Source of the DNA: a virus
Lineage: Duplodnaviria; Heunggongvirae; Uroviricota; Caudoviricetes
IMG/VR virus record: IMGVR_UViG_2531839667_000014
Span: 1-36,921 of that record
Strand: one strand, 5' to 3'
Length of the DNA stretch: 36,921 bases
Below the pieces are notes generated by a model. The model saw only the letters and a program-made list of their open reading frames with translations, was not told the origin of the DNA and did no database searches. Within the stretch, counting starts at the first letter, position 1; the number at the start of each line of letters is the position of its first letter. Shown piece by piece: positions 1,464 through 35,615 of this stretch. The translations under genes and the position numbers were made by a program.

Positions 1464-4400
1464 TCAACGAATACTGATGCCGGAAGCCGCTTTTTTGGTC
1501 ACAATCACCGTACAGTCGGTGATATTGCCTGCCCCCTGATTGCCTTTCTGGAAAATCTTAAACTCCAGAGTGACGCTACCACCACCACTAGGCATATCAA
1601 TAACTGCACTGTAACTACCGGGAATGGCCCCTTTAGTTTCTCTGGATGCGATTAATACACCGTTTTTGCGAACTTCAAAACCATAACCCGTGTAACTTGT
1701 ACCTCCCGGGTTATTACCACTTCCCGGATAGCTATACGCTATTCCGTTAAAGATAATGGGCGGAATAATGATTTGACGGTCAAAGTTATGATCATCGCTG
1801 ATGGTGACTGTAACCGTCCCGTTTGGTGTTTCCGTGTTACCCCACGTACCAGCCTGTTTCGGGAATGATTTGGATACAGCTTTAACGAAGTCACCTCTGA
1901 CCTGAGTCGCCTCCAGCATGCCCTTAATCGTACAGTTTTCATTTACCGTGACGTTGTTGAGCGTCCCGGAGTTCGCATTCACACTGCCACTGATATCCGC
2001 ATTTTTAGCGGTCAGCTTTCCGTCTGATGTCAGGGAAAATACCGGAGGACTGCCACCACTGGTAATGGTGGGAGCCGTCAGGCGCTTCAGGAACACGTCG
2101 TTCATGAATATCTGATTGCCCTGCGCCACAAACATCGGCGTTTCATTCCCGTTTGCCGGGTCAATAAACGCGATACGGTTAGCGGCAACCAGAAACTGGC
2201 TCAGCTTGCCTTCTTCCGTGTCCTCCATGCTGAGGCCAATACCCGCGACATAATGTTTGCCGTCTTTGGTCTGCTCAATTTTGACGCCCCACATGGCATT
2301 CCATTTATCGTTAGCGTCCTTCCACTCTTTCGAAAACTCCTCCAGTCTGCTGGCGTTATCCTCCGTCAGATCGACTTTTTCCAGCAGCTCCTTGCCGAGA
2401 TGAGATTCGGTTATCTTGCCTTTGAAAAAATCCAGGTAACCTTCCGCATCATCGCTCGCCCGACCGACGGCCTCCACGAATGCCGATTTGCCAACGGTGT
2501 TCACACTGCGAACATAAAAGTAATAATCATGGCCCGGTTTGATATTGATACTGGCGGCTATCCAGTACAGCCCCGTGCCAAGGTAGCGGGCTGTGGTTTC
2601 AACCTGCCTGATATCGGTAATCCGCGTTTCCGAGAACCAGAACTCAAACTGTACCGTCGGATCATAAACCGCAAGATGCGGCGTGGCAGTTATCTGAAAA
2701 TAGCCCGGCGTCAGCTCAATCTGTGACGGCGCTGCCGGTGCGGCAATCCGGAACGATACCGACGCCGGATCGCCCTGCTGTCCCCGGGCATTTACCGCCC
2801 GGACTGTCAGCGTGTAACGCCCCAACGCCAGCTGCCTGAAGCGGTATGTGGTTTCCGTCGTCCGGGCCGTGCTGACCAGCCGCTCACTGCCGTCATCCGC
2901 TGCCACGGTCAGGCGAAGCATAAAGCTCCCCCCCTTCACCACCTTCGGCGTGTCCCAGCGCGCCAGCACCTGGTATTCCCCGCTGTCTGCGGTGACTTCT
3001 GCGGTCAGGTGCTGCACTGCTGGCGGCGTGACACCATTCACCGTGCCGCTCTGGTCGCCGTCAAAGTGCGCCCCGTTATCCACGATGGCCTCTTTCTCCG
3101 GCACATGCTGCACAGCGGTGATGGCATACGTGCCGTCGTCATTCTCACGGATACTCACGCAGCGGAACAGGCGCTGGCGCAGCGTCGGCAGCTTCAGCCC
3201 CCATACGCTGTATTCAGCAACACCGTCAGGAACACGGCTCACTTTTACCTTCACGCCGTCGGTGACGGACTGAACCTCCACGCTGACCGGATTGCCACTT
3301 CCGTCAACCAGGCTTATCAGCGTGGTACCGGAGGATGGCAGCGTGATTTCACGGTCGAGCGTCAGCGTCCGGGTCTGGCTGTTCACCGCCAGCACACGAC
3401 CACCGGTGCTGATACCGGCATAGTCATCATCACAGATTTCAATGACATCGCCCGGCACATGGCGAAGCCCTTCTGCGCCCACGCAGAAGTCCACGGTCTG
3501 CGTTTCCAGCAGTTCTGTTTTAATCAGCCACAGCCCGGCGCGGTGTGCCTGCCCCCGGCTGGTACAGCCAAAAGCATCCATCTTCGTGACGTTACGACCG
3601 TAACGGGCAATGGCCTGCGTATCCTCCACAAGCTCTGTCGCCGTCTCCCAGCCGTTGTCCGGGTCAATCCAGTTCACCTCAACGGCATTATGGCGGTCTT
3701 TCAGGGCGCTGAAGCTGTAGCGGAACGGCGCGCCATCATCCGGCATCACCACATTACTGCGGTTATAGGTCCACACCTTATCCGACGGTCGGTCCTGCAC
3801 GAACGTCAGCGTCTGCCCGTTCCATACCGGCATACAGCGCATCGCCGAGCAGAAATCACTGAGCACATCCCACGCCTTGCGCTGTGTGGTCAGGTACGCA
3901 TTACAGGTGATGCGCGGCTCCGTGCCGCCAAAGCCGTCCGGCACTGACTGGTCGCAGTACTGGCCGATGACATACAGCGCCCATTTGTCCACATCCGCCG
4001 CACCAAGACGTTTCCCCATGCCGTAGCGTGGATGGGTCAGCATATCCCACAGACACCAGGCCATGTTATTGCTGTATGCTGGCTTAAACGTTCCGTCCCA
4101 GATACCGCTGTATTGCCGCGTCTGCGGGTTATAGTTCGACGGCACCTGCAGAATACGCCCGCGCAGATGATAATTACGGCTCACCTGCTGGCTGCCGAAC
4201 TGCTCCGAATCCACCTGTACGCCGACCAGTGCCGTGTTCGGGTAGCACTGTTTCACATCGATGATTTCGGTGTATGACGACCAGAGCGTTTTGTTCTGCA
4301 GCTGGTCTGTGGTGCTGTCCGGCGTCATCCTGCGCATCCGGATATTGAACGGGCGCGGCGGCAGGTTACCCACCACCACCGATGCCAGATACTGTGAGGT

Positions 4401-25712: not shown

Positions 25713-25991
25713 TTACCTCCAGATCCGTTGCTGGAATGTGCGGGACGGACGCGGTGGGCGTTCGGAATAAGGGAGTCTGACGTAGATTATCCAGAGACGA
25801 TAATCGAGGCTGAGGGCTTTCCTAAACTCATACCCACGTCTGCGGTAGTTATGAATCAGCCATTCGGCCTGTTCTTCAGTGCAGGGGTCATGCTGGTACC
25901 AGTCATATTTGAATGCGTGAGGGCGCCGCCCGTGCCCGCTGGCAAAGACGGCTGAATTATCAGAATTGTTAATTTTCTTGTAATGCACCAC
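25713..25991 (-). CDS. hypothetical prophage protein
   Basis: 92-aa ORF abutting the DUF968 gene on the same strand; no family recognised. Confidence 0.4.
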   Translation of the reverse strand: MVHYKKINNSDNSAVFASGHGRRPHAFKYDWYQHDPCTEEQAEWLIHNYRRRGYEFRKALSLDYRLWIIYVRLPYSERPPRPSRTFQQRIWR

Positions 25992-26057
25992 TACTGTCCT
26001 CGTAATGGTGCGACAGACGCCAGTTGTTCAGGCTGGCTTTGACTACGGCATTATAAT

Positions 26058-26252
26058 CTAGTCTTTCTTAATGCTGAAGTGACTGACCGAATCCACATGC
26101 GATTCTTTGGTGATCAGAATAACATCGGATGGCAATGGCATTACGATAAATTCACCATTCTCAAGAACTATTACTTCATAATTACCAGGTACAGAAAGCG
26201 CAGCAATTAATTCCTTATCGTTCATAACCAAAATCCCGTGAACTTTAAACAC
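26058..26252 (-). CDS. hypothetical protein
   Basis: 64-aa ORF; the annotated start is GTG with no spacing to a GGGGAG stretch, so the true start may be the ATG at 26225. Confidence 0.35.
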   Translation of the reverse strand: MFKVHGILVMNDKELIAALSVPGNYEVIVLENGEFIVMPLPSDVILITKESHVDSVSHFSIKKD

Positions 26253-26467
26253 CTCCCCTTAAGGGGTCCATCCATCTTCTCCCTGCGCGCTACTCAAAAC
26301 GGGTGAATTCTAATTAATCTTTATTTCGAAGCAATCGCAAAAAACAAAATAGAAAATAAAAACAAACACACTAAAAACAACAAATACAACTATATCGAAA
26401 ATTAATTAACTATTCGGACAGCAGAGCAATATAACTTCAGTTAAAATCATTAATCTCCCTTATTCAT

Positions 26468-26494
26468 GAAAAACAAAACCCGCCGAAGCGGGTT
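26468..26494 (-). terminator. rho-independent terminator at the 3' end of the hok transcript
   Basis: Minus-strand AACCCGC-ttcg-GCGGGTT followed by TTGTTTTTC. Confidence 0.6.
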
Positions 26495-26562
26495 AAGTGC
26501 GGGTGCGTTGAGGATGCCTGACACATCAGAGGTGGCGAGGGATTTCTCCCCCGCCGGGTCTC

Positions 26563-29262: not shown

Positions 29263-30210
29263 TTACCCTCTGAACCCAGGTGGAATTTCGGTATCCGGTT
29301 CAGAAATATGATTCACACAACGCTGTATTGGCGAACGCCCCAAGCGAATAACCAGCTCATCCCATTTTTCGCGAAGCTTTGACGGGCTCATGATGTTTTT
29401 TACCCAGAATGGATCCCGCTGTACCCGACCAAACATTTCACAAATTTGTCTGTGAGTTCTGCCATCCAGCATCCGCATTGTGCGCACATCATTGGCCCAT
29501 GCGGTCCAGTTTGGTTCTTTCGGTCGCATGATTTCGCCATCATCGCTGGCAGCCTGCTCGTAAAGACTCACGATTCGTCCCCAGATCCACTGCGCACACG
29601 CCAAATCTTCCTGGCTACCCCACTGGCGTTTTTTCGCACTGAACACAACCGCGTCAGGGTGTCGGGTTAAAAAATCCTGTTCAGCCGTCTGCGGCTCCGG
29701 TTGCGAAGCGTCCGGACAAGAAGATCTTTTATCTGACGGATCAGGTTTTAATACTGACGGATCGGGGCCAACCATCGCCCCCCTAACCGGATGTTTTTTA
29801 TCAACGGTTGATCCATCAAAATTTGACGGGTCAACCGTTGAGGGGTCAATGTTTGACGGGTCATTTTTTACCTGGTTAATTTTTCTTTTCGGTTTATATG
29901 CCTCACGCGCCGCCGCTGCTGCTGCTTCGAGTTTTTCCACATTAAGACGGTAGATATTGCTTTCATTACGCCCACCGACCTTACGTTCCTCCTTCGTCAG
30001 CCAGCCGTTCTTTTCCAGTTCTGCTATCGCAGCTTTAACCGTTGATTCACTCTTTGCCCCAATCTGACGACGAATGGTCTCCACTGCAGGCCATGACACA
30101 CCTTCGTCATTGCTGTAATCTGCAAGGCGAGCCATTACTGCCACCCTGGATAAGATCATGCCGGTGAAGGCACACCCTTCCCAGACAAGACCATGAAGCT
30201 TGCTGCTCAT
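29263..30210 (-). CDS. replication initiation protein (O-like, N-terminal winged-helix domain)
   Basis: 315 aa; N-terminal DNA-binding domain ...SWPAVETIRRQIGAKSESTVKAAIAELEKNGWL...; the linker is encoded by the iteron cluster; position downstream of cro-like and YdaT-like genes. Confidence 0.65.
   Translation of the reverse strand: MSSKLHGLVWEGCAFTGMILSRVAVMARLADYSNDEGVSWPAVETIRRQIGAKSESTVKAAIAELEKNGWLTKEERKVGGRNESNIYRLNVEKLEAAAAAAREAYKPKRKINQVKNDPSNIDPSTVDPSNFDGSTVDKKHPVRGAMVGPDPSVLKPDPSDKRSSCPDASQPEPQTAEQDFLTRHPDAVVFSAKKRQWGSQEDLACAQWIWGRIVSLYEQAASDDGEIMRPKEPNWTAWANDVRTMRMLDGRTHRQICEMFGRVQRDPFWVKNIMSPSKLREKWDELVIRLGRSPIQRCVNHISEPDTEIPPGFRG
29734..29900. repeat. candidate origin of replication: iteron cluster plus AT-rich tract inside the initiator gene
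   Basis: 9-mer TGACGGATC/TGACGGGTC at 29734, 29755, 29824 and 29854, an inverted near-copy at 29810, an inverted pair TCAACGGTTGA/TCAACCGTTGA, then a T/A-rich stretch at 29863..29900. Confidence 0.55.
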
Positions 30211-31021: not shown

Positions 31022-31411
31022 ATGGACATGAGAAAAAAGCAATACGACACCCCGCTGGCAGAAAGGTTAGATACGATCTCGCAACAGCATCATTTAAGCG
31101 GTTCAGATTTAGCGCGTATCGCTGGTGTAGGTCGTTCATCAGTCAACGCATGGAAAAAAAGAGGGACAATCAGTAAAGATTCCGCAGCTAAAATTGCAGA
31201 AGCTACAAACGTTTCCCTTTCTTGGCTACTGACAGGAAAAGAAGATACAAATAGAGAGGCGCTTGATGATGATGAGAAAGCCCTGCTTGATGTTTACAGA
31301 AACCTGCCACCCGTAGAACGTAGAAATATGCTGGCAGCTTTTCAAATGCGACTTCAAAAACTGACCGAATTTTACTCAGAATACGTTGACCCAATCACAC
31401 GACAAAAATAA
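31022..31411 (+). CDS. CI/DicA-like repressor (HTH-XRE type, no peptidase domain)
   Basis: 129 aa with HTH ...LSGSDLARIAGVGRSSVNAWKKRG...; divergent from the cro-like gene; followed by a terminator and the dicB-operon promoter. Confidence 0.7.
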   Translation: MDMRKKQYDTPLAERLDTISQQHHLSGSDLARIAGVGRSSVNAWKKRGTISKDSAAKIAEATNVSLSWLLTGKEDTNREALDDDEKALLDVYRNLPPVERRNMLAAFQMRLQKLTEFYSEYVDPITRQK

Positions 31412-32452: not shown

Positions 32453-32508
32453 TTTCTGGTGACGTTTGGCGGCATCTGTTTGCCCATGAACTGATGTCCG
32501 CCCTTTTT
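32453..32508 (+). ncRNA. dicF: DicF-like small RNA (cell-division inhibitor sRNA)
   Basis: TTTCTGGTGACGTTTGGCGG...GATGTCCGCCCTTTTT: the 5' and terminator-hairpin ends match K-12 DicF as I recall it; sits between ydfC and dicB; exact ends uncertain. Confidence 0.6.
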
Positions 32509-32677
32509 AAAGTGAATTTTGTGATGCGGTGAATGCGGCTAAGCGCACGCGGAACAGTTAAAGCTAAAAACAGTGTTATGGGTGGATTCTCTGTATCCGG
32601 CGTTAATTGTTAACTGGTTAACGTCACCTGGAGGCACCAGGCACCGCATCACAAAATTCATTGTTGAGGACGCGATA

Positions 32678-32866
32678 ATGGAAACGTTATTACCAAACGT
32701 TAATACGTCTGAAGGTTGTTTTGAAATTGGTGTCACTATCAGCAATCAGATATTTACTGAAGATGCCATTAATAAAAGAAAACACGAACAGGAACTGCTA
32801 AATAAAATATGCATTGTTTCGATGCTGGCCCGTTTACGTCTGATGCAAACAGGATGCAGGCAATGA
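32678..32866 (+). CDS. dicB: cell division inhibitor DicB
   Basis: 62 aa METLLPNVNTSEGCFEIGVTISNQIFTEDAINKRKHEQELLNKICIVSMLARLRLMQTGCRQ, near-identical to K-12 DicB from memory; GAGGA RBS; the track ORF is over-extended upstream. Confidence 0.9.
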   Translation: METLLPNVNTSEGCFEIGVTISNQIFTEDAINKRKHEQELLNKICIVSMLARLRLMQTGCRQ

Positions 32867-33143: not shown

Positions 33144-35615
33144 ATGAGTAAAGTCTTTATTTGCGCCGCCATTCCGGACGAACAGGCAACAGCAGAAGGC
33201 GCCAAACCTGTGGCCACTGCCATTGAAGCAGGCGACGAACGCCGGGCAAGAGCCAAATTTAGCTGGTTATTTCTGGAACAATACCCGGAAGCTCAGGACT
33301 GTGCTTATAAATTTCTTGTCTGCGAGGATAAACCCGGCATGGCCCGCCCTGCTCTCGATTCCTGGGATTCCGAATATATGCAGGAAAACCGCTGGAATGA
33401 GGAGTCGGCTTCCTTTGTTCCGGTCGACCCTGAACCGGATACAGAAACTGTTAACTTTAATCAGTTATCTGAAGACAAGCGGGCTGCTGTCCTTGTCAGG
33501 TTCGGTACACATGAAAACATCACCGTGGATATGGTCATCAATGCAAGCGGGCTTCTCGGCGATGACGAGATGACGACTTTTGATGGACACCTCACTGAAG
33601 CAATTATCAGGACTAAAGAAATTAACGCCATGTATCCTGAGCGTCAGACTGAGTACATCAACGATGCCAGACGTGATTTAAAACCAACAGCCAAATGGCC
33701 CGACGTTCAGGCGTATTTTCTCGAACGTAAAAAACGCATGGAAAAGGAGCGCAAAGAAGGTGGAGCATATAATTCCGTCGTCGATCTTGCCCGCGCCAGA
33801 GTCAACCGGCAAGGCACTGAAAACTCTGCAGGAAAAACTGACTCCGTAACTGCTGTCGTTCGTCGCGAATACAGGCAGACATGGAAAACACTGGATGAAG
33901 AACTGGCCTACGCTTTCTGGCCTGGTGATATTGATGCCGGAAACATTGACGGCAGCATCCATCGCTGGGCAAAAAATGAAGTTATCGACAAAGATCGCGA
34001 AGACTGGAAGCGTATTTCCGCATTAATGCGCAAACAACCTGATGCCGTTCGCTACGACCGTCAGACTATTTTTGGCCTTGTCCGTGAGCGTCCGATCGAC
34101 ATTCACAAAGATCCCGTGGCGCTGAACAAATACATCACTGAATACCTGGCGACAAAGGGCGTGTTTGAGGATGAAGAAACAGACCAGAGCACTGCTGATA
34201 TTCTCCAGCCGTCAGCAGCACAAACTGATGCAGTGGAAACTGAAGTATCTGATACCCAAAAAAATGAAAGCGCGCTGGAAACTGAACCATCTGTAGAGCG
34301 TGAAGGACCGTTCTACTTCCTCTTCACCGATAAGGATGGCGAAAAATATGGTCGTGCAAACAAACTTTCTGGTCTGAATAAGGCGCTGGCTGCCGGGGCT
34401 ACTGAAATCACGAAAGAAGAATATTTTGCCCGTAAAAACGGCACGTACTCAGGTTCACAACAAAATACTGGTGCATCTGACACGACCGCACAACCAGAGC
34501 CGGTAAAAGTTACCGCTGACGAAGTAAACAAAATTATGCAGGCAGCCAATATCAGCCAGCCTGACGCCGATAAGTTGCTTGCTGCCTCTCGCGGAGAATT
34601 TGTTGCAGGGATTAGCGACCCGAATGATCCGAAATGGGTGAAGGGGATTGAAACCCGCGATTCTGTAAACCAGAACCAGCAAGAATCGGAACAGAACGAC
34701 CAGAAAGCGGAACAAAACAGCCCAAATGCGCAACAAAACGAGCCAGAAACGAAACAATCCAAACCAGTAACGCAACAGGAACCTGAAAAAGTCTGCACCG
34801 CCTGCGGTCAGAGCGGTGGCGGCAACTGCCCTGATTGTGGCGCGGTGATGGGCGACGCAACATACCAGGAAACATTCGATGACGAGAATCAGGTTGAAGT
34901 TCAGGAAGACGATTCGGAGAAAATGGAAGGCGCTGAACATCCACACAAGGAGAATGCTGGCAGCGATCAGGATCACGCCAGCGATAGTGAAACTGGCGAG
35001 ACGGCAGATCCCTTAATTGCGGTGAACGGTCATCACGTTATCACATCCACCAACAGAGCGGGGATTCATCTGATGATCGACCTTGAAACCATGGGAAAAA
35101 ATCCTGATGCCCCGATTATCGCAATAGGTGCAATATTTTTCGATCCGCAAACCGGAGATATGGGGCCGGAATTTAGCAAGACCATCGATCTGGATACTGC
35201 TGGCGGAGTCATTGATCGTGACGTCATTAAATGGTGGCTTAAGCAATCACGTGAGACGCAATCTGCCATTCTGACCGATGAAATTCCGTTAGATGATGCA
35301 CTACTGCAATTGCGGGAATTTATAGATGAAAACTCCGGTGAATTTTTTGTTCAGGTCTGGGGAAATGGAGCCAACTTCGACAACGTGATTTTACGCCGTT
35401 CATACGAACGACAGGGTATCCCCTGCCCGTGGCGCTACTGCAACGATCGCGATGTACGCACAATCGTTGAGCTGGGGAAAGCTATAGACTTCGATGCCAG
35501 AACGGCTATCCCATTCGAAGGTGAGCGCCACAATGCACTTGATGACGCCCGTTACCAGGCAAAATACGTTTCAGCTATCTGGCAAAAACTGATCCCGAAT
35601 CAGGCTGATTTTTAA
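33144..35615 (+). CDS. large multidomain protein: RecE-like N-terminal/central regions, zinc ribbon, C-terminal DEDDh 3'-5' exonuclease domain
   Basis: 823 aa; C-terminal motifs DLET, NGANFD and HNALDDA (DnaQ-like DEDDh); CxxC-x8-CxxC (CTACGQSGGGNCPDCG); Q/N/E-rich low-complexity linker; central segment ...LLAASRGEFVAGISDPNDPKWVKGIETRD... resembles Rac RecE from memory. Confidence 0.8.
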   Translation: MSKVFICAAIPDEQATAEGAKPVATAIEAGDERRARAKFSWLFLEQYPEAQDCAYKFLVCEDKPGMARPALDSWDSEYMQENRWNEESASFVPVDPEPDTETVNFNQLSEDKRAAVLVRFGTHENITVDMVINASGLLGDDEMTTFDGHLTEAIIRTKEINAMYPERQTEYINDARRDLKPTAKWPDVQAYFLERKKRMEKERKEGGAYNSVVDLARARVNRQGTENSAGKTDSVTAVVRREYRQTWKTLDEELAYAFWPGDIDAGNIDGSIHRWAKNEVIDKDREDWKRISALMRKQPDAVRYDRQTIFGLVRERPIDIHKDPVALNKYITEYLATKGVFEDEETDQSTADILQPSAAQTDAVETEVSDTQKNESALETEPSVEREGPFYFLFTDKDGEKYGRANKLSGLNKALAAGATEITKEEYFARKNGTYSGSQQNTGASDTTAQPEPVKVTADEVNKIMQAANISQPDADKLLAASRGEFVAGISDPNDPKWVKGIETRDSVNQNQQESEQNDQKAEQNSPNAQQNEPETKQSKPVTQQEPEKVCTACGQSGGGNCPDCGAVMGDATYQETFDDENQVEVQEDDSEKMEGAEHPHKENAGSDQDHASDSETGETADPLIAVNGHHVITSTNRAGIHLMIDLETMGKNPDAPIIAIGAIFFDPQTGDMGPEFSKTIDLDTAGGVIDRDVIKWWLKQSRETQSAILTDEIPLDDALLQLREFIDENSGEFFVQVWGNGANFDNVILRRSYERQGIPCPWRYCNDRDVRTIVELGKAIDFDARTAIPFEGERHNALDDARYQAKYVSAIWQKLIPNQADF

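Follow-up and report, generated by a model that had tools for sequence, protein, structure and literature searches.

Why does a prophage of balanced base composition carry, between the terminator of a hok gene and the next gene, a block of DNA dominated by runs of A? The block lies at positions 26253–26462 of a 36,921-nucleotide sequence (IMG/VR record IMGVR_UViG_2531839667_000014, analysed at its full length and hereafter called the window). The initial annotation of this sequence suggested three answers: intrinsically curved DNA that acts as an H-NS silencing site, an UP element, or the scar of a module junction. The evidence presented below favours the last of these. We estimate at roughly 0.68 the probability that the block is a non-coding, hypervariable linker that extends from the hokD/sok terminator to a conserved sigma-70-type promoter, that is, slack DNA that is replaced as a unit.

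Genomic context of the block

The window is a nearly complete lambdoid prophage (36.9 kb, 51 per cent GC) of the pig isolate Escherichia coli DCE7 (NZ_CP090611.1, 100 per cent match). Its organization is Qin-like, with an integrase, an exonuclease, the dicB operon, a repressor and cro-like pair, replication genes, and hokD/sok, followed by a small ORF, a 92-aa ORF, DUF968, RusA, Q, two tRNAs, and the lysis, head, and tail genes. All genes in the neighbourhood of the block are on the minus strand. Read in that direction, hokD is followed by its terminator, which forms the right-hand edge of the AT-rich block, and then by the AT-rich spacer, a promoter-like element, a leader with a palindrome hairpin, and a 55-aa ORF (Table 1).

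Table 1. Features in and around the AT-rich block (window coordinates).
Feature	Position	Strand	Basis	Details
sok	26886–26713	−	Rfam match, 100 bits	
hokD CDS	26718–26563	−	Annotation	
Intrinsic terminator of hokD/sok	26494–26477	−	Terminator scan	Stem-loop AACCCGC-TTCG-GCGGGTT; T-tail to ~26464
Non-repetitive AT-rich segment of the A/T-rich spacer allele	26396–26463	−	Alignment of 10 alleles	~80 per cent identity to siblings
Low-complexity tract	26335–26395	−	TRF, autocorrelation, sibling alignment	T/G-rich on the transcribed strand (A-runs on the plus strand)
Putative sigma-70-like promoter	26307–26334	−	Conservation across loci	−35 TTGCTT 26334–26329; 16-nt spacer; −10 TAGAAT 26312–26307
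Putative 5′ leader of the 55-aa ORF transcript	26226–26300	−	Comparison of loci	~75 nt
Palindrome CCCCTTAAGGGG	26255–26266	−	Centroid fold	Predicted 4-bp G:C hairpin with UUAA loop in the leader RNA
55-aa ORF (phrog_34610)	26058–26225	−	PGAP; PHROG match, 7e-38	First gene of 55-aa ORF > 92-aa ORF > DUF968 > RusA > Q

In an Rfam scan of the window, only sok scored above threshold, and no family was found within the block. Three sub-threshold matches were recorded elsewhere. An isrK match (27 bits versus a gathering score of 50; E-value 0.006) covers the 3′ end of the hok mRNA and the terminator (26473–26554, minus strand) and is probably driven by the terminator. A DicF homolog at 32454–32503 (plus strand) scores 43.5 bits, narrowly under the Rfam gathering score of 48, and is therefore missed at the default threshold. 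It is followed by an STnc100-like match (32501–32710, plus strand; 39 bits versus 47) upstream of dicB. The prophage also contains two sets of intragenic repeats. Tandem 15/30-bp repeats (TCAAAATTTGACGGG-like) at 29801–29863 lie within a helix-turn-helix gene (29263–30210) and look like origin iterons within an O-like replication gene, and four copies of a 21-bp repeat with 70 per cent identity (34674–34757) lie within the exonuclease gene (33144–35615). An IS200C transposase gene (2098–2556, minus strand) is situated between the tail-fibre genes and a lom-like gene.

Composition of the block

The A-runs reported in the initial annotation are located where they were described (AAAAAACAAAAT at 26339–26350, AAAATAAAAACAAACAC at 26353–26369, CTAAAAACAACAAATACAAC at 26371–26390, and AATTAATTAA at 26400–26409), as is the perfect palindrome CCCCTTAAGGGG. 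The contrast in composition with the surroundings is equally real: the block holds the most AT-rich stretch of the whole window at lengths of 74, 173, and 210 bp. The AT fractions of these stretches (0.82, 0.76, and 0.70, respectively, versus a window mean of 0.49 with a standard deviation of 0.05–0.07) are well beyond chance, being approximately 4–5 standard deviations above the mean. AT content is 66.7 per cent across 26253–26462, 73.4 per cent across 26298–26470 (48 per cent A and 9 per cent G on the plus strand), and 82 per cent across the 74 bp at 26339–26412 (66 per cent A and 2.7 per cent G).

The 26253–26462 interval combines four things: the leader, the promoter, a low-complexity tract, and a unique AT-rich segment. 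The last of these contains TTAATTAA and the AGTTAATTAA motif, while TCGATATAGT (26389–26398) spans its boundary with the low-complexity tract. No function was detectable in this segment, in which motif counts are not above chance. The AGTTAATTAA motif (26402–26411, minus strand), which is kept in the sibling alleles described below and lies approximately 100 nt upstream of the predicted transcription start, matches the old ArcA-box consensus WGTTAATTAW (one match in the window versus 0.21 expected). As a single match not above chance, it was rejected as a protein-binding site.

Unrelated spacer alleles between shared flanks

If the block marked a module junction, homology should stop at its ends. 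Using a 15-nt probe from the leader, we retrieved at least 120 IMG/VR loci; together with the E. coli loci, 134 loci were compared. The hok/sok module is present in approximately 100 phage records with 92–97 per cent identity, and every one of these matches ends at the terminator (window 26469–26491). From the other side, the leader and 55-aa ORF are found in 85 of 5426 complete E. coli genomes, with matches that end at 26297, 26344–26348, or 26368. The borders of the modules thus coincide with both ends of the AT-rich block. The block as a whole was recovered from the source genome only, and the exact window version is present in 1 of the 5426 E. coli genomes.

The terminator, TAGAAT, and the leader are common to approximately 130 loci among those listed. 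Between the terminator and TAGAAT/leader, these loci carry at least six mutually unrelated spacer alleles of 79–258 nt. By far the commonest is the K-12 type (79 nt, 58 per cent AT), which is also the hokD–rem intergenic region of the cryptic K-12 prophage Qin. It was found in approximately 95 of the 134 loci compared, 40 of which share one exact 79-nt variant. The A/T-rich allele family, to which the window copy belongs, is present in 21 of the 5426 complete E. coli genomes. Each of the K-12-type, A/T-rich, and L005-type spacer classes occurs with both downstream genes (a rem-like gene and the 55-aa ORF), and the promoter-plus-leader module also sits behind the terminators of non-hok genes. 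Because spacer classes pair with either downstream gene and because the terminator upstream need not be that of hok, the block behaves as an exchangeable linker at a mosaic joint. Hence, of the suggestions made in the initial annotation, the module junction is the one that the comparison with related prophages bears out: the block varies as a replaceable allele between shared flanks, and matches to either flank stop at its ends.

In three hok-less IMG/VR prophages (L015, L019, and L030), the stem AACCCGCTTCGGCGGGTT of the hok terminator is located approximately 100–150 nt upstream of the leader, where it terminates unrelated genes. Since its stem ends unrelated genes in prophages without hok, the terminator acts as a shared boundary element.

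Searches for the A/T-rich block in other DNA returned little. There was no match to it in plasmids and no genuine match among GTDB species representatives, where the single match, a 20-mer in a MAG that is unrelated, arose by chance. When positions 25990–26480 were searched against the phage collection, only query positions 264–333 (window 26253–26322) matched, and the block is therefore without a phage match beyond approximately position 26322. An origin from a mobile element was considered and rejected: the block has neither terminal inverted repeats nor a convincing target duplication, and no further copy of it turned up in E. coli, in plasmids, or in the phage collection.

A conserved promoter-like element downstream of the spacer

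The hexamer TAGAAT is invariant in the approximately 130 loci among those listed, with variable sequence on both sides of it, and is always preceded by a terminator, even where hok is absent. A TTGnnn hexamer is positioned 16 or 18 nt upstream of TAGAAT in every one of the at least six spacer alleles (TTGAAG-18, TTGCTT-16, TTGATT-16 in two classes, TTGATA-16, and TTGAGG-16), and the bases between the two hexamers are unrelated. Conservation of TTGnnn-16/18-TAGAAT amid unrelated DNA is the signature of a sigma-70 promoter. On this comparative evidence, the TAGAAT element is probably an active promoter, with transcription predicted to start near 26300. The window version matches the consensus at only 8 of 12 positions, which is below the threshold of the promoter scan, and it was therefore not reported by that scan.

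The K-12 counterpart of the promoter and leader is at positions 2404–2510 (minus strand) of locus L133. The supplementary data of the TSS studies searched list no start site near the corresponding K-12 position (1644975 in v3; 1642999 in v2), and a full-text literature search for the leader sequence gave no match. A candidate antisense promoter on the plus strand (TTAACT-18-TATAAC, approximately 26408–26437), identified by eye and kept in siblings, was discarded: its −10 hexamer does not have the invariant final T, and the promoter scan did not report it.

The leader and the gene that follows it

The leader starts approximately 15–20 nt downstream of TAGAAT and reads AGTAGCGCGCAGGGA-AAGA-GGATGG, followed by a hairpin of C3–5/G3–5 and then AG. 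Its core, AGTAGCGCGCAGGGAGAAGATGGATGG, and the hairpin (26294 to approximately 26252; ~45 nt) are nearly invariant, regardless of whether rem or the 55-aa ORF is downstream. The same leader is carried in the hokD–rem intergenic region of Qin. In the centroid fold, the hairpin formed by the palindrome is the sole stable element; taken in full, the leader lacks a stable fold (z = +1.7), and none of the Rfam families matches it. In relatives, the stem is kept, while the loop varies in both sequence and length (GAACA, TTAAA, GAA, TGAA, GAGA, or ATAA, versus TTAA in the window). The window has no excess of perfect 12-bp palindromes (six observed versus 8.8 expected from composition), and this one is significant only for its conservation as a hairpin in relatives.

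The initial annotation also took the palindrome to contain the start region of a 64-aa ORF, a claim that does not hold. PGAP places the start at ATG 26225, which gives a protein of 55 aa, and in a relative (L033), a TAG occurs in frame four codons before the equivalent ATG. Because the ORF starts at this ATG and not at the GTG of the 64-aa version, the palindrome is situated within the 5′ leader, approximately 30 nt upstream of the start.

All leaders also have an invariant ATG (26268–26270, minus strand), preceded by GGGAG, directly ahead of the hairpin. The mini-ORF that begins there has 8 codons in the window (26270–26244), 3 in K-12, and 14–15 in others; the stops of the 14–15-codon versions overlap or abut the start of rem. 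The encoded peptide is not conserved, and any role would therefore lie in translation itself. We also considered the hairpin as part of a nut site, in which boxA (CGCTCTTA) precedes a boxB hairpin whose pentaloop is GNRA-like; such sites are used by phages with an N-type antiterminator. This candidate was rejected: the window has no boxA, the UUAA loop does not resemble GNRA, and the annotation of the prophage shows no N-like gene. A boxA-like GCTCTTA is found in one allele class only.

The 55-aa ORF has no Pfam match and no similarity to Rem. It holds the position that rem has in K-12 Qin, and the window prophage has no rem. The window repressor (31028–31411, plus strand) has only 26 per cent identity to the DicA of K-12, despite the Qin-like dicB operon. 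Together, the divergent repressor, the absence of rem, and the presence of the 55-aa ORF in its place raise the possibility that the ORF encodes an alternative antirepressor. In a 2023 study (PMC10448788), Rem was shown to act as an antirepressor on DicA; the signal that induces Rem is, according to that study, unknown. The conserved promoter-like element and leader upstream of rem offer a concrete cis element with which to approach that question.

A 9-bp minisatellite in sibling alleles

To characterize the A/T-rich allele family, we read and aligned nine sibling alleles from E. coli (10 alleles with the window copy). At the position of the window A-runs, siblings carry head-to-tail copies of a 9-bp unit, GTATTGTTT on the transcribed strand, with approximately 5–13 aligned copies per allele (9.3 copies at 85 per cent in L003). 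Exact units number from 1 in the degenerate allele L130 to 11 in L128; the window has none. The sibling blocks are 201–255 bp long and differ mostly by multiples of 9, with additional 1-nt indels in T-runs.

The window copy is the shortest allele and is degenerate. Its tract contains no tandem repeat: TRF reports only a period of 6 with 61 per cent matches, and the autocorrelation at lag 9 is not significant (z = 1.7). Judging by their position and the homology of their flanks, the window A-runs are probably a degenerate, collapsed counterpart of the sibling array, and we infer that the tract was generated by slippage.

When a 25-nt probe of approximately 2.8 repeat units was searched against IMG/VR, the matches were mostly low-complexity DNA of giant viruses. 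In loci L126–L132 of E. coli chromosomes (approximately positions 240–530 of each locus), the minisatellite allele accompanies a rem-like gene, which RefSeq marks as frameshifted in all seven of the fetched loci.

Regulatory, coding, and structural alternatives

The most serious alternative is that the AT-rich island nucleates H-NS or another nucleoid protein, which would spread over the promoter and silence the 55-aa ORF-to-Q unit in the lysogen. Nowhere is the prophage more AT-rich than in the block, which lies upstream of a conserved promoter, and the unit ends in the gene for the late antiterminator Q, so its silencing would be useful. From composition, binding of the block by H-NS is plausible. 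TCGATATAGT, on the minus strand, agrees at 9 of 10 positions with TCGATATATT, reportedly a high-affinity H-NS site. However, such a motif is not above chance (one found versus 1.6 expected in the window), and a second H-NS motif (TCGATAAATT) has no match in the block. Consensus sites for IHF, Fis, or LexA are absent from the block. The island is short (~170 bp) and without predicted curvature that would favour binding. Most prophages with the same promoter, including Qin, evidently manage with a spacer of 79 nt and 58 per cent AT. We regard such a silencing role as unlikely.

A second regulatory alternative is an UP element, in which the T-rich tract upstream of the −35 hexamer would contact the C-terminal domains of the RNA polymerase alpha subunits and boost the TAGAAT promoter. 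The block spans −36 to approximately −165 of the promoter-like element. If the putative promoter is real, the tract at 26335–26358, which is T-rich on the non-template strand, adjoins its −35 hexamer upstream and falls at the right position (−38 to −59, within the −40 to −60 range of UP elements). The UP consensus is nnAAAWWTWTTTTnnnAAAnnn, with a proximal subsite of AAAAAARNR that is usually the more important part of the element. Scored against this consensus, the window matches 7 of 14 positions (background 4.1, standard deviation 1.7), with 8–9 of 11 in the distal subsite but only 0–2 of 8 in the proximal one. In the K-12 allele, a T-rich run (the tail of the terminator) likewise falls at this position, whereas the L005-type and other alleles have no A/T-rich upstream region (4–6 of 14). 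Moreover, an UP element would explain at most approximately 22 bp of the 170-bp block, leaving ~150 bp to be accounted for. As the reason for the block, it is quite improbable.

Some observations count against the linker. The segment at 26396–26463 is well conserved among the nine siblings, which could be a sign of function and not of recent shared ancestry, and the presence of a T-rich tract directly upstream of the −35 hexamer in both the A/T-rich and K-12 alleles suggests that A/T-richness upstream of the promoter may be selected. In a regulatory interpretation that we consider very doubtful, the minisatellite-bearing spacer would be a tunable cis-regulatory element, whose length (in 9-bp steps) or occupancy by nucleoid proteins sets the activity of the promoter. 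Were this true, the promoter of the antirepressor slot and Q would be set differently in different lysogens, resulting in heritable differences in spontaneous induction, that is, a contingency-type switch for a prophage.

That the block encodes a small hydrophobic peptide or, alternatively, a small RNA is highly improbable. Open frames do exist, and the length of the 9-bp unit is divisible by three; the window has a candidate 22-aa frame with a TTG start (26321–26389), and siblings have frames of the form MRL(YCL)n...ALLRNKD, with the same ATG and C-terminus in five of nine (L127, L128, L129, L131, and L002). However, stop codons are missing from all frames of the T/G-rich unit, so that the open frames simply follow from composition. 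A Shine-Dalgarno sequence is lacking, the 1-nt indels in T-runs break the frame in four of the nine siblings, and the ATG is absent from the window. The MRL(YCL)n ORF is most likely an artefact of composition. A 14-aa ORF with a Shine-Dalgarno sequence (26452–26408), noted by eye, was rejected, because its ATG is lost in every sibling. The lack of both an Rfam match and a terminator inside the block speaks against a small RNA. Conserved coding sequence in homologs, named in the initial annotation as an observation that would overturn its readings of the block, was not found; there is no conserved ORF.

Finally, intrinsic curvature from phased A-tracts is very improbable: the block contains many A4–A6 runs, but curved DNA needs A-tracts repeated every 10–11 bp or so, in phase with the helix, and these runs (starting at 26339, 26346, 26353, 26358, 26373, and 26398) are out of phase because their spacings are 7, 7, 5, 15, and 25 bp. 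The curvature prediction that had been proposed as a check gave only background values. In three dinucleotide wedge models, which we implemented ourselves, the block averages 3.6–5.4 degrees per turn, equal to the window mean (5.0–5.5) and far below a phased-A6 control (20–27; out-of-phase control tracts, 2–3). The 9-bp unit is also off-phase, giving 6–9 degrees per turn in a control. A modest local peak (~12 degrees per turn at 26298) is located beside the promoter and not in the A-runs.

Interpretation and significance

In the linker that we favour, the constrained elements would be the terminator and the −10 hexamer with its leader, which would serve as patches of homology for recombination between phages. 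The DNA between terminator and promoter would then be free to be replaced, to expand, and to contract. Its AT-richness and low complexity would be maintained by the origin of the tract in a slippage-prone 9-bp array and by a general A/T bias upstream of promoters. The promoter and the leader with the CCCCTTAAGGGG hairpin would head the next unit (55-aa ORF, 92-aa ORF, DUF968, RusA, and Q). A weak UP-like contribution may come from the nearest 20–25 bp, and H-NS may be drawn to the island; both are compatible with a linker. The A-runs themselves probably have no sequence-specific function and would provide, at most, an upstream region that is T-rich, UP-like, or friendly to nucleoid proteins.

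The block itself matters little, as one rare allele of an exchangeable terminator-to-promoter linker of the kind expected at lambdoid mosaic joints. More useful are two by-products of the analysis: a conserved promoter-like element with its leader in the Rem/antirepressor slot, and a 9-bp minisatellite that differs between strains. The latter is prophage-borne and varies among STEC and ETEC isolates, and it could serve as a strain marker. To our knowledge, this locus has not been described as a VNTR for typing.

Comparison with known systems

H-NS-bound AT-rich islands resemble the block in that it is 73–82 per cent AT within an element of 51 per cent GC and lies beside a promoter. The block differs from them in that curvature is not predicted and motifs are not enriched, and most sibling prophages have no island at all. 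UP elements of the rrnB P1 type share with the window an A/T-rich tract at −38 to −59 with a T-run similar to the distal subsite, but the window has no proximal subsite (7 of 14 positions overall), and the block reaches approximately 100 bp past the UP region.

The sibling alleles resemble the intergenic minisatellites (VNTRs) of enterobacterial genomes, which arise by replication slippage: they have head-to-tail 9-bp units in strain-variable number and lengths that change in 9-bp steps. The window copy differs in that it is not itself a tandem repeat.

A close counterpart is the hokD–rem intergenic region of Qin, in which the hokD terminator, TAGAAT, and the AGTAGCGCGCAGGGA... leader with its C/G hairpin are the same as in the window, and the gene order matches (hok, a small gene, DUF968 [ydfU], and Q). 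Between these shared anchors, the spacer is 79 nt and 58 per cent AT in Qin versus 197 nt and 70 per cent AT in the window, the −35 hexamer is TTGAAG at 18 nt versus TTGCTT at 16 nt, and the downstream gene is rem versus an unrelated 55-aa ORF. The flanks of the window block assort independently, as is expected of the mosaic joints of lambdoid phages.
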